From a virus: DNA of 50,279 bases. Below the pieces are notes generated by a model. It had not been told where the DNA came from, searched no databases, and saw only the letters and a list, made by a program, of their open reading frames with translations. Location of the stretch: the IMG/VR virus record IMGVR_UViG_3300025924_000033; one strand, given 5' to 3'. Both the position numbers and the translations under genes were made by a program. Of the stretch, positions 48,460-48,546 are shown piece after piece (position 1 is the stretch's first letter; each line of letters opens with the position of its first letter).

Positions 48460-48546
48460 CGGAGAGAGAAGGATTCGAACCTCAGACAGCTTGCGCCGCC
48501 CGCACTGCTTTCCAAGCAGGCCTGCACCCTGTGCAGTTCACTCTCC
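48460..48546 (-). tRNA. aberrant tRNA-like gene: 6-bp D hairpin with 3-nt loop, anticodon-loop TTGGAAA (GGA, Ser-like), long variable region; pseudo-tRNA or specialised RNA
   Basis: GGAGAGT-GA-A-CTGCAC-AGG-GTGCAG-G-CCTGC[TTGGAAA]GCAGT-var-GAGG-TTCGAAT-CCTTC-TCTCTCC-G; no G18G19 in D loop; acceptor/T helix could alternatively form a 10-bp continuous helix. Confidence 0.4.

Follow-up and report, generated by a model that had tools for sequence, protein, structure and literature searches.

A probable serine tRNA on a non-canonical 8/4 cloverleaf in a viral tRNA gene array

Serine transfer RNAs (tRNA-Ser) with an (8/4) cloverleaf and serine anticodons were described in bacteriophage tRNA gene clusters by Mukai et al. 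(Nucleic Acids Res 2017, PMC5389517). The allo-tRNAs reported in that work have a 12-bp acceptor branch arranged as 8/4 or 9/3, a long D stem with a tiny loop like that of selenocysteine tRNA (tRNA-Sec), a long variable arm, and G73 or U73 (PMC5389517). They were discovered as sub-threshold matches to the tRNA-Sec model that carried a sense anticodon, and both 8/4 and 9/3 allo-tRNAs are processed, serylated, and efficiently used in translation in Escherichia coli (PMC5389517). When we searched the literature for subsequent studies of 8/4 tRNAs in phages, only Mukai et al. 2017 and reviews were returned. Here, we analyzed an 87-nt element in the IMG/VR virus record IMGVR_UViG_3300025924_000033, a stretch of 50,279 nt that we refer to in full as the window. 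The element occupies 48460-48546 on the minus strand (read 48546..48460), within a minus-strand tRNA array in which ARAGORN places tRNA-Ser(CGA) at 48183-48274 and tRNA-Ser(UGA) at 48581-48673 on either side of it. Sequence and comparative evidence make it very probable that the element functions as a serine tRNA with the anticodon GGA and a non-canonical 8/4 cloverleaf. It most likely adds to the already described (8/4) phage tRNA-Ser/allo-tRNA class, a rare cloverleaf, with the class assigned by the published description of Mukai et al.

The proposed cloverleaf can be followed along the RNA from its 5' end. The first eight nucleotides, GGAGAGUG (48539..48546), form the 5' strand of the acceptor stem, in which U7 lies opposite U66 and G8-C65 is the eighth pair. 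An AA linker (48537..48538), the first A of which is able to pair with U64 in a 9/3 alternative, leads to a D arm, CUGCAC-AGG-GUGCAG (48522..48536), with a 6-bp stem and a 3-nt loop. The anticodon arm, GCCUGC-UUGGAAA-GCAG(U)GC (48502..48521), consists of four contiguous pairs, a bulged U, and two further pairs, and its loop register, with U33 and A37, places the anticodon GGA (Ser, codons UCC and UCU) at 48511..48513. This arm is followed by a long variable arm, GGGCGGC-GCAA-GCUGUCU (48484..48501), whose 7-bp stem includes three G·U pairs and carries a GCAA tetraloop, and by a T arm, GAGG-UUCGAAU-CCUU (48469..48483), with a 4-bp stem. The 3' strand of the acceptor stem, CUCUCUCC, and a discriminator G (48460) complete the gene at 48460..48468. 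An earlier sequence-only reading of this DNA had given the position of the element correctly, together with the perfect 6-bp D hairpin, the TTGGAAA loop, the T arm, and the acceptor helix, all of which are present; the acceptor/T helix, which it counted as 10 bp, is a coaxial branch of 12 bp (8+4, with 9+3 also possible in the window sequence) with one U·U mismatch. Compared with canonical 7/5 class II tRNAs, the element lacks both U8 and a 3-4-bp D stem with a large D loop, and the canonical pairs 7:66 (U·U) and 49:65 (U·C) cannot form.

These features resemble the published (8/4) tRNA-Ser class closely. The element shares its 12-bp 8/4 branch, long D stem, very small loop, long variable arm, discriminator G, and serine anticodon, and it too lies in a phage tRNA cluster and is a sub-threshold match to tRNA-Sec. 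It is peculiar in its 3-nt AGG D loop, in U7·U66, in the optional A9-U64 pair that would give a 9/3 register, and in being the sole 8/4 gene among four serine tRNAs, whereas related arrays have whole 8/4 serine sets. The (9/3) allo-tRNAs of Acidobacteria and soil metagenomes (PMC5389517, PMC7590224) share the 12-bp branch, the long D stem, the long variable arm, and the identity elements for seryl-tRNA synthetase (SerRS), and the 9/3 fold of the window sequence is as stable as its 8/4 fold. However, the published 9/3 species are missense or nonsense suppressors whose anticodons are Arg, Leu, or ochre (PMC5389517, PMC7590224), while the element has a serine anticodon and its family does not conserve the ninth pair.

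We collected homologues using probes for the anticodon arm (18 nt in IMG/VR, 21 nt in metagenomes, and 18 nt in GTDB genomes), which returned many loci. Among them was a family with the same odd architecture and differing stem sequences, as illustrated by the D stems CCCCAC/GUGGGG, UCGACG/CGUCGG, AUCAGA/UCUGAU, and CUGGGC/GCCCAG. Twenty-one distinct homologues were found in phage-like tRNA arrays, all with Ser anticodons. In a MAFFT alignment of ten GGA-type homologues made with no structure fitting (alignment A2), the 8-bp acceptor, anticodon, and 4-bp T helices were 96.7% paired, and ten pairs were changed on both sides. None of 500 shuffles paired as well, and slid controls were 44-68% paired. 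A covariance model built from ten family sequences (R1) scores the element at 98.1 bits. With the 21 distinct homologues aligned to R1 (alignment A4), the whole 8/4 cloverleaf was 95.4% paired, compared to 39-47% for slid controls, and both-side changes occurred at 27 of 31 pairs. These changes affected all six D-stem pairs, all four T-stem pairs, and six of the seven variable-arm pairs; the T stem was paired in 100% of cells, and the outer pair of the anticodon arm covaries between G-C and A-U.

The three candidate registers are each decided by one pair. Pair 8:65, which defines 8/4, forms in 21 of 21 homologues (GC in 13, AU in 4, CG in 2, and UA in 2), whereas pair 49:65 of the canonical 7/5 register forms in only 4 of 21 and pair 9:64 of the 9/3 register in 2 of 21, the window and its near-identical relative L035. 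We therefore take 8/4 to be the structure of the family. The canonical 7/5 fold was rejected on these counts, as was 9/3 for the family as a whole, although 9/3 is still possible for the window sequence. Pair 7:66 is weak across the family, with U·G in ten members and no pairing in six, the U·U of the window among them.

Several points weigh against an intact 8/4 serine tRNA. Alignment A4 was fitted to the structure of the model and hence favors it; its acceptor and T columns are gap-free, and the MAFFT alignment agrees with it. Folding energies do not separate 8/4 (-38.3 kcal/mol) from 9/3 (-38.6 kcal/mol) in the window sequence, with a 7/5-like fold being worse at -36.0 kcal/mol, and the modeled energies suggest that the member in the window might also sample the 9/3 register. 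The acceptor stem contains the U7·U66 mismatch and the anticodon stem a bulged U, and the D loop has three nucleotides, compared to a tetraloop in the published allo-tRNA consensus. Since the family was seeded by an anticodon-arm pattern, its GGA members are not an unbiased sample. Finally, the element has no differences over 87 nt from three related contigs and one (in the T loop) from a fourth, while its surroundings are ~4.5% divergent. However, across the array, tRNA genes diverge between the window and its relatives by 4.7% and non-tRNA sequence by 4.5%, and because the two are alike, the conservation argument for the element is weak.

Some of these irregularities would also be expected if the element were a decaying or inactive tRNA-Ser pseudogene, that is, a 7/5 gene that had lost its D arm, gained mismatches at the junction, and been retained by its position in the array. 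Its 3' half (GGUUCGAAUCCUUCUCUCUCCG) exactly matches the 3' half of many canonical tRNA-Ser genes of phages, with which it has the T loop and 3' acceptor sequence in common, making descent from a canonical tRNA-Ser plausible. The canonical tRNA-Ser(GGA) genes of loci L019, L022, L033, and L038 likewise have the same anticodon, anticodon arm, and start of the variable arm. An IMG/VR search with a 22-mer from the 3' T arm and acceptor strand returned only canonical tRNA-Ser genes and the close relative, and is thus informative only about the canonical type of the 3' half. A pseudogene would also fit with the U·U mismatch and the bulged U, with rejection of the element by both ARAGORN and the Rfam tRNA family, with the inactive allo-tRNA pseudogenes described by Mukai et al. 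(PMC7609411), and with the relative L034, which has no 3' acceptor strand. Yet both of the mismatches seen in a 7/5 register are resolved by the 8/4 register, which compensatory changes maintain in all 21 homologues, and the D arm that such a gene should have lost covaries in every pair. The restriction of the family to serine anticodons, the filling by the element of the single missing G34 slot (below), and the near absence of differences across four related contigs also argue against decay, and we regard a pseudogene as very unlikely.

In the L034 copy of the 8/4 tRNA-Ser(GGA) gene (1887-1968 of Ga0334722_10096428), everything from the 5' end through the T arm is intact, but unrelated sequence (…CCUCUCCUGGGUAC) stands in place of the 3' acceptor strand. 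Truncation to a pseudogene is one possible origin of this copy, and a junction made by recombination or integration is another.

Evidence for serine identity comes from the family and from the tRNA set of the phage. R1 found 22 members in flanking DNA, where the search did not select the anticodon; their anticodons were UGA (8), GCU (8), and CGA (6), and U33 was present in all 22. The family as a whole carries only GGA, CGA, UGA, and GCU, and 32 of the 35 members listed have G as their discriminator. The pairs G2-C71 and A3-U70 do not vary across the 21 homologues. Together with G73 and the long variable arm, these pairs are among the identity elements of E. coli SerRS. The element had been described as lacking G18G19, but its AGG loop contains a GG that is kept in 20 of 21 distinct members, whose D loops range from 3 to 6 nt, indicating that the equivalents of G18G19 are present in a very small loop.

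To place the element in a tRNA set, we used the relative L031, which is 96% identical and has a near-complete set of 43 ARAGORN tRNAs in 20 kb. Its four-codon boxes are served by tRNAs with G34 or A34 for Thr (GGU), Pro (GGG), Ala (GGC), Val (GAC), Leu (GAG), Gly (GCC), and Arg (ACG), and serine is the sole four-codon box with neither among the ARAGORN-detected tRNAs. The serine anticodons detected by ARAGORN are GCU, CGA, and UGA, and the element adds the missing GGA. In this phage, the GCU, CGA, and UGA serine tRNAs are 7/5 and GGA alone is 8/4. Its cognate codons, UCC and UCU, account for 253 of 906 Ser codons (28%) in the likely genes of the window. Collectively, the complete anticodon stem-loop with U33 and A37, the discriminator G, the serine-only relatives, and the filled G34 slot speak against the earlier view that the element does not decode.

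The neighboring tRNA-Ser(CGA) gene (48183-48274, minus strand) is 7/5 and has CCA encoded, with an unusually short D arm (UUGC-ACAUUG-GCAA). Against the Rfam tRNA model it stays below the gathering score, and against tRNA-Sec it reaches 37.9 bits.

A plausible path from this gene to decoding can be outlined from the sequence features and the published behavior of the class. The element would share a transcript with the other genes of the minus-strand phage tRNA array, from which RNase P and 3' processing enzymes would excise it. It does not encode CCA, as its 3' flank is CCG (the gene reads G-CCG), and CCA would thus have to be supplied by the CCA-adding enzyme; some relatives encode CCA. The host SerRS would then charge the tRNA by way of the long variable arm, G73, and G2-C71/A3-U70, as suggested by the conserved identity elements and by published data on the class. 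Delivery by EF-Tu would proceed through the 12-bp acceptor/T helix, and acceptance by EF-Tu and the ribosome is expected because 8+4 bp give the same 12-bp helix as 7+5, as published for the class. Given its conservation, the GG of the compact D arm presumably contacts the T loop to form the usual elbow. The anticodon and the slot that it fills suggest that UCC and UCU would be decoded during phage gene expression.

The sequence-only reading had named clean detection of a canonical tRNA-Ser(GGA) with a normal D arm as the outcome that would count against an aberrant gene. ARAGORN made no tRNA call at the element when run on the window, and the gathering score of the Rfam tRNA family (RF00005) was not reached there. 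The predicted minimum free energy of the element is -40.7 kcal/mol, compared to -30.9 +/- 3.3 kcal/mol for shuffled sequences (z = -3.0), and none of 200 shuffles equaled it. In a permissive scan of 48100-48750, the best Rfam family for the element was tRNA-Sec (RF01852), with 40.9 bits and E = 1e-6, below the RF01852 gathering score of 47. Minimum-energy folding and the tRNA-Sec model both recover the cloverleaf. Structural aberrance and departure from a canonical tRNA-Ser(GGA) are therefore well founded parts of that reading.

The RF01852 match raises the question of whether the element is of the tRNA-Sec type, or a Ser-tRNA converted by SelA that recodes UCC/UCU or another codon. Like the element, bacterial tRNA-Sec combines an acceptor stem of 8 bp with a D stem of 6 bp that ends in a tiny loop, and the long variable arm, G73, and an extended anticodon stem are common to both; in addition, the long D stem of allo-tRNAs is a binding site of SelA and PSTK (PMC7590224). 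However, the score is sub-threshold, the T stem of the element has 4 bp instead of 5, giving a branch of 12 bp (8/4) and not 13 bp (8/5), and its anticodon is GGA instead of UCA. Sister genes in related arrays span four serine anticodons, as in ordinary serine decoding, and no SelA, SelB, or SelD domain was found among the 30 window open reading frames (ORFs) scanned with Pfam. A selenocysteine function is thus exceedingly unlikely.

The same scans bear on the proposal that the element is a tRNA mimic that does not decode, either a Ro partner resembling Y RNA or YrlA or a decoy or sponge for a nuclease or modification enzyme. The tRNA-like module of bacterial Y RNA/YrlA shares a T-arm-like hairpin, an acceptor-like helix, and a non-canonical D region with the element, and the failure of standard finders, the presence in the window of unusual RNA- and translation-related proteins and of a vault-protein-like ORF, and the known role of phage tRNAs against tRNA-targeting defenses (PMC10264068, PMC11464382, PMC11555353) are all compatible with a mimic. 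Nevertheless, the resemblance on which the sequence-only reading relied found no support in the Rfam scan, which gave no Y_RNA/YrlA-type match up to E = 10 in 48100-48750, in an Rfam copy whose model content is unconfirmed. A gene for the Ro60 protein (rsr) was not apparent either, with no TROVE match in the 30 ORFs scanned. The element has no long Ro-binding helix, and it has a complete anticodon arm with a serine anticodon, a variable arm, and a discriminator under covariation. A decoy would need neither serine-limited anticodons nor a missing isoacceptor slot to fill. There is accordingly little likelihood of a purely non-decoding mimic, although a decoy role alongside decoding is possible.

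If the element is a serine tRNA, its 8/4 shape may be adaptive or a tolerated neutral variant. One adaptive explanation, which we consider unlikely, is that the shape allows a serine tRNA to escape host defenses that target tRNAs, the kind of defense that phage tRNAs counter in the work cited above, while staying compatible with SerRS, EF-Tu, and the ribosome. Decoding of UCC and UCU would then continue while host tRNA-Ser is destroyed. As a matter of speculation, candidate defenses would be nucleases that recognize the acceptor stem or elbow, and nucleotidyltransferase toxins against class II tRNAs; the reported targets in a paper on bacterial Schlafen proteins are tRNAs other than class II. 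An equally speculative variant, by analogy with allo-tRNAs, is that the tRNA would, through its long D stem, be open to conversion from Ser to Sec in a host with SelA.

We also examined how widely the 8/4 genes occur. The window is ~96% identical to the 210-kb IMG/VR viral contig Ga0070683_100000015 (L001/L031/L041), in which the element region is 100% identical over 161 nt, and a search for related loci using the neighboring PTH2-like protein recovered only this same contig. Canonical tRNA-Ser(GGA) genes with the same arm were also among the loci returned by the anticodon-arm probes; with the 18-nt probe in IMG/VR, 11 loci were of the 8/4 type and 3 were canonical. R1 detected more family members beside the seeds within the same arrays, and the arrays of several relatives hold complete 8/4 serine sets. 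Among genome contigs, 8/4-type genes were found only on short contigs of metagenome-assembled genomes with tRNA arrays (L045, L062, and L064); the remaining pattern matches there were not of this family, and no firm host assignment results.

A BLAST search against GenBank phages identified one full-length homologue in a cultured phage, Mesorhizobium phage Cp1R7A-A1 (MT188704.1, L070), located in an unannotated gap of its tRNA array. R1 finds three 8/4-type tRNA-Ser genes in this genome, GGA, GCU, and CGA, at 41613-41701, 41789-41874, and 42130-42218; ARAGORN called none of the three, and none is annotated. The annotated array of this phage also contains 88-nt 'tRNA-Lys' and 'tRNA-Asn' genes, which appear to be oversized. 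In another related phage array that bears 8/4 serine tRNAs (L037, Ga0208492_1001639), ARAGORN assigns four anticodon bases (caaa) to a 90-nt 'tRNA-???' at 1843-1932.

The 8/4 phage tRNAs are therefore overlooked systematically or called inconsistently, with GenBank entries for cultured phages no exception, and the family is not rare, given the IMG/VR counts and the complete serine sets. Because tRNA finders miss these genes, inventories of phage tRNAs and analyses of codon compensation undercount serine isoacceptors. The main practical value of the element thus lies in annotation; tRNA biology is unchanged by it, since a 2017 publication had already described the class and its competence in translation. 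Allo-tRNAs already serve as a chassis for orthogonal tRNA engineering (PMC7590224), for which the covarying 8/4 sequences are useful design data.

The array that contains the element includes 14 ARAGORN tRNAs in 45966-50226, among which lie an HNH endonuclease and small ORFs. A scan of 47600-50279 for promoters and terminators gave nothing above shuffles. A protein-coding reading of the element itself was considered and rejected: an 89-aa ORF with a TTG start (48279-48548) overlaps it, but a 55-aa ORF is the likelier gene. The latter starts with ATG at 48446, 14 nt past the 3' end of the tRNA, has GGAG 9 nt upstream, and had no Pfam match. Other ORFs within the array are a Cys-rich one that may have a signal peptide (48679-49035, minus strand), the HNH endonuclease (48978-49523, minus strand), and a PTH2-type peptidyl-tRNA hydrolase (46462-46797, minus strand). 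Between tRNA-Leu(UAG) and tRNA-Leu(CAA), ~268 nt (49637-49903) are absent from the 96%-identical relative (L001 969-974), and an 83-aa ORF (49653-49904, plus strand) lies within this extra stretch.

Other tRNA genes of the array also have unusual anticodon or variable arms. Two adjacent tRNAs of class I length on the minus strand (45966-46040 and 46042-46118), called Leu(aag) by ARAGORN, have 9-nt anticodon loops, CAUAAGCAA and CCUAAGCAA, that have UAAGCAA in common despite different tRNA bodies; L031 contains both tRNAs as well. These expanded loops resemble those of frameshift-suppressor or quadruplet-decoding tRNAs. The next tRNA (46121-46192, minus strand) encodes CCA and has a 15-nt anticodon arm, UCGGC-UAUAA-GCCGA, which can be drawn with a 5-nt loop or with a 4-bp stem and the loop CUAUAAG; ARAGORN calls it Tyr(ata), and the Rfam alignment shows a 2-nt deletion in the loop. 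A 92-nt tRNA at 47735-47826 (minus strand) has the anticodon UAU (AUA, Ile), a class I D arm, and A as its discriminator. It also carries a long extra arm, GCGC-CAGAUAA-GCGC, which is unexpected, a long variable arm being normally absent from Ile tRNAs. Of 694 Ile codons in the window, 12 are AUA, the least used of them.

Beyond the array, the window is phage-like and rich in translation-related functions. It encodes a transfer-messenger RNA (21662-22022, plus strand; 124.7 bits) with the tag ANDNVRVQSNLSAPLQAAA and a SpoU-family RNA 2'-O-methyltransferase (35733-36272, plus strand), along with adenylosuccinate synthetase, ThyX, and two DNA-ligase-type ORFs. One ORF has a major-vault-protein shoulder domain (32837-35632, plus strand; E = 1.4e-23), and another combines WGR, PARP regulatory, and PARP catalytic domains (42473-43897, plus strand; E = 3.7e-33). 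With a nearby DnaJ and protein-kinase-like ORF at 27271-28344, these make up an unusual, eukaryote-like set for a phage.

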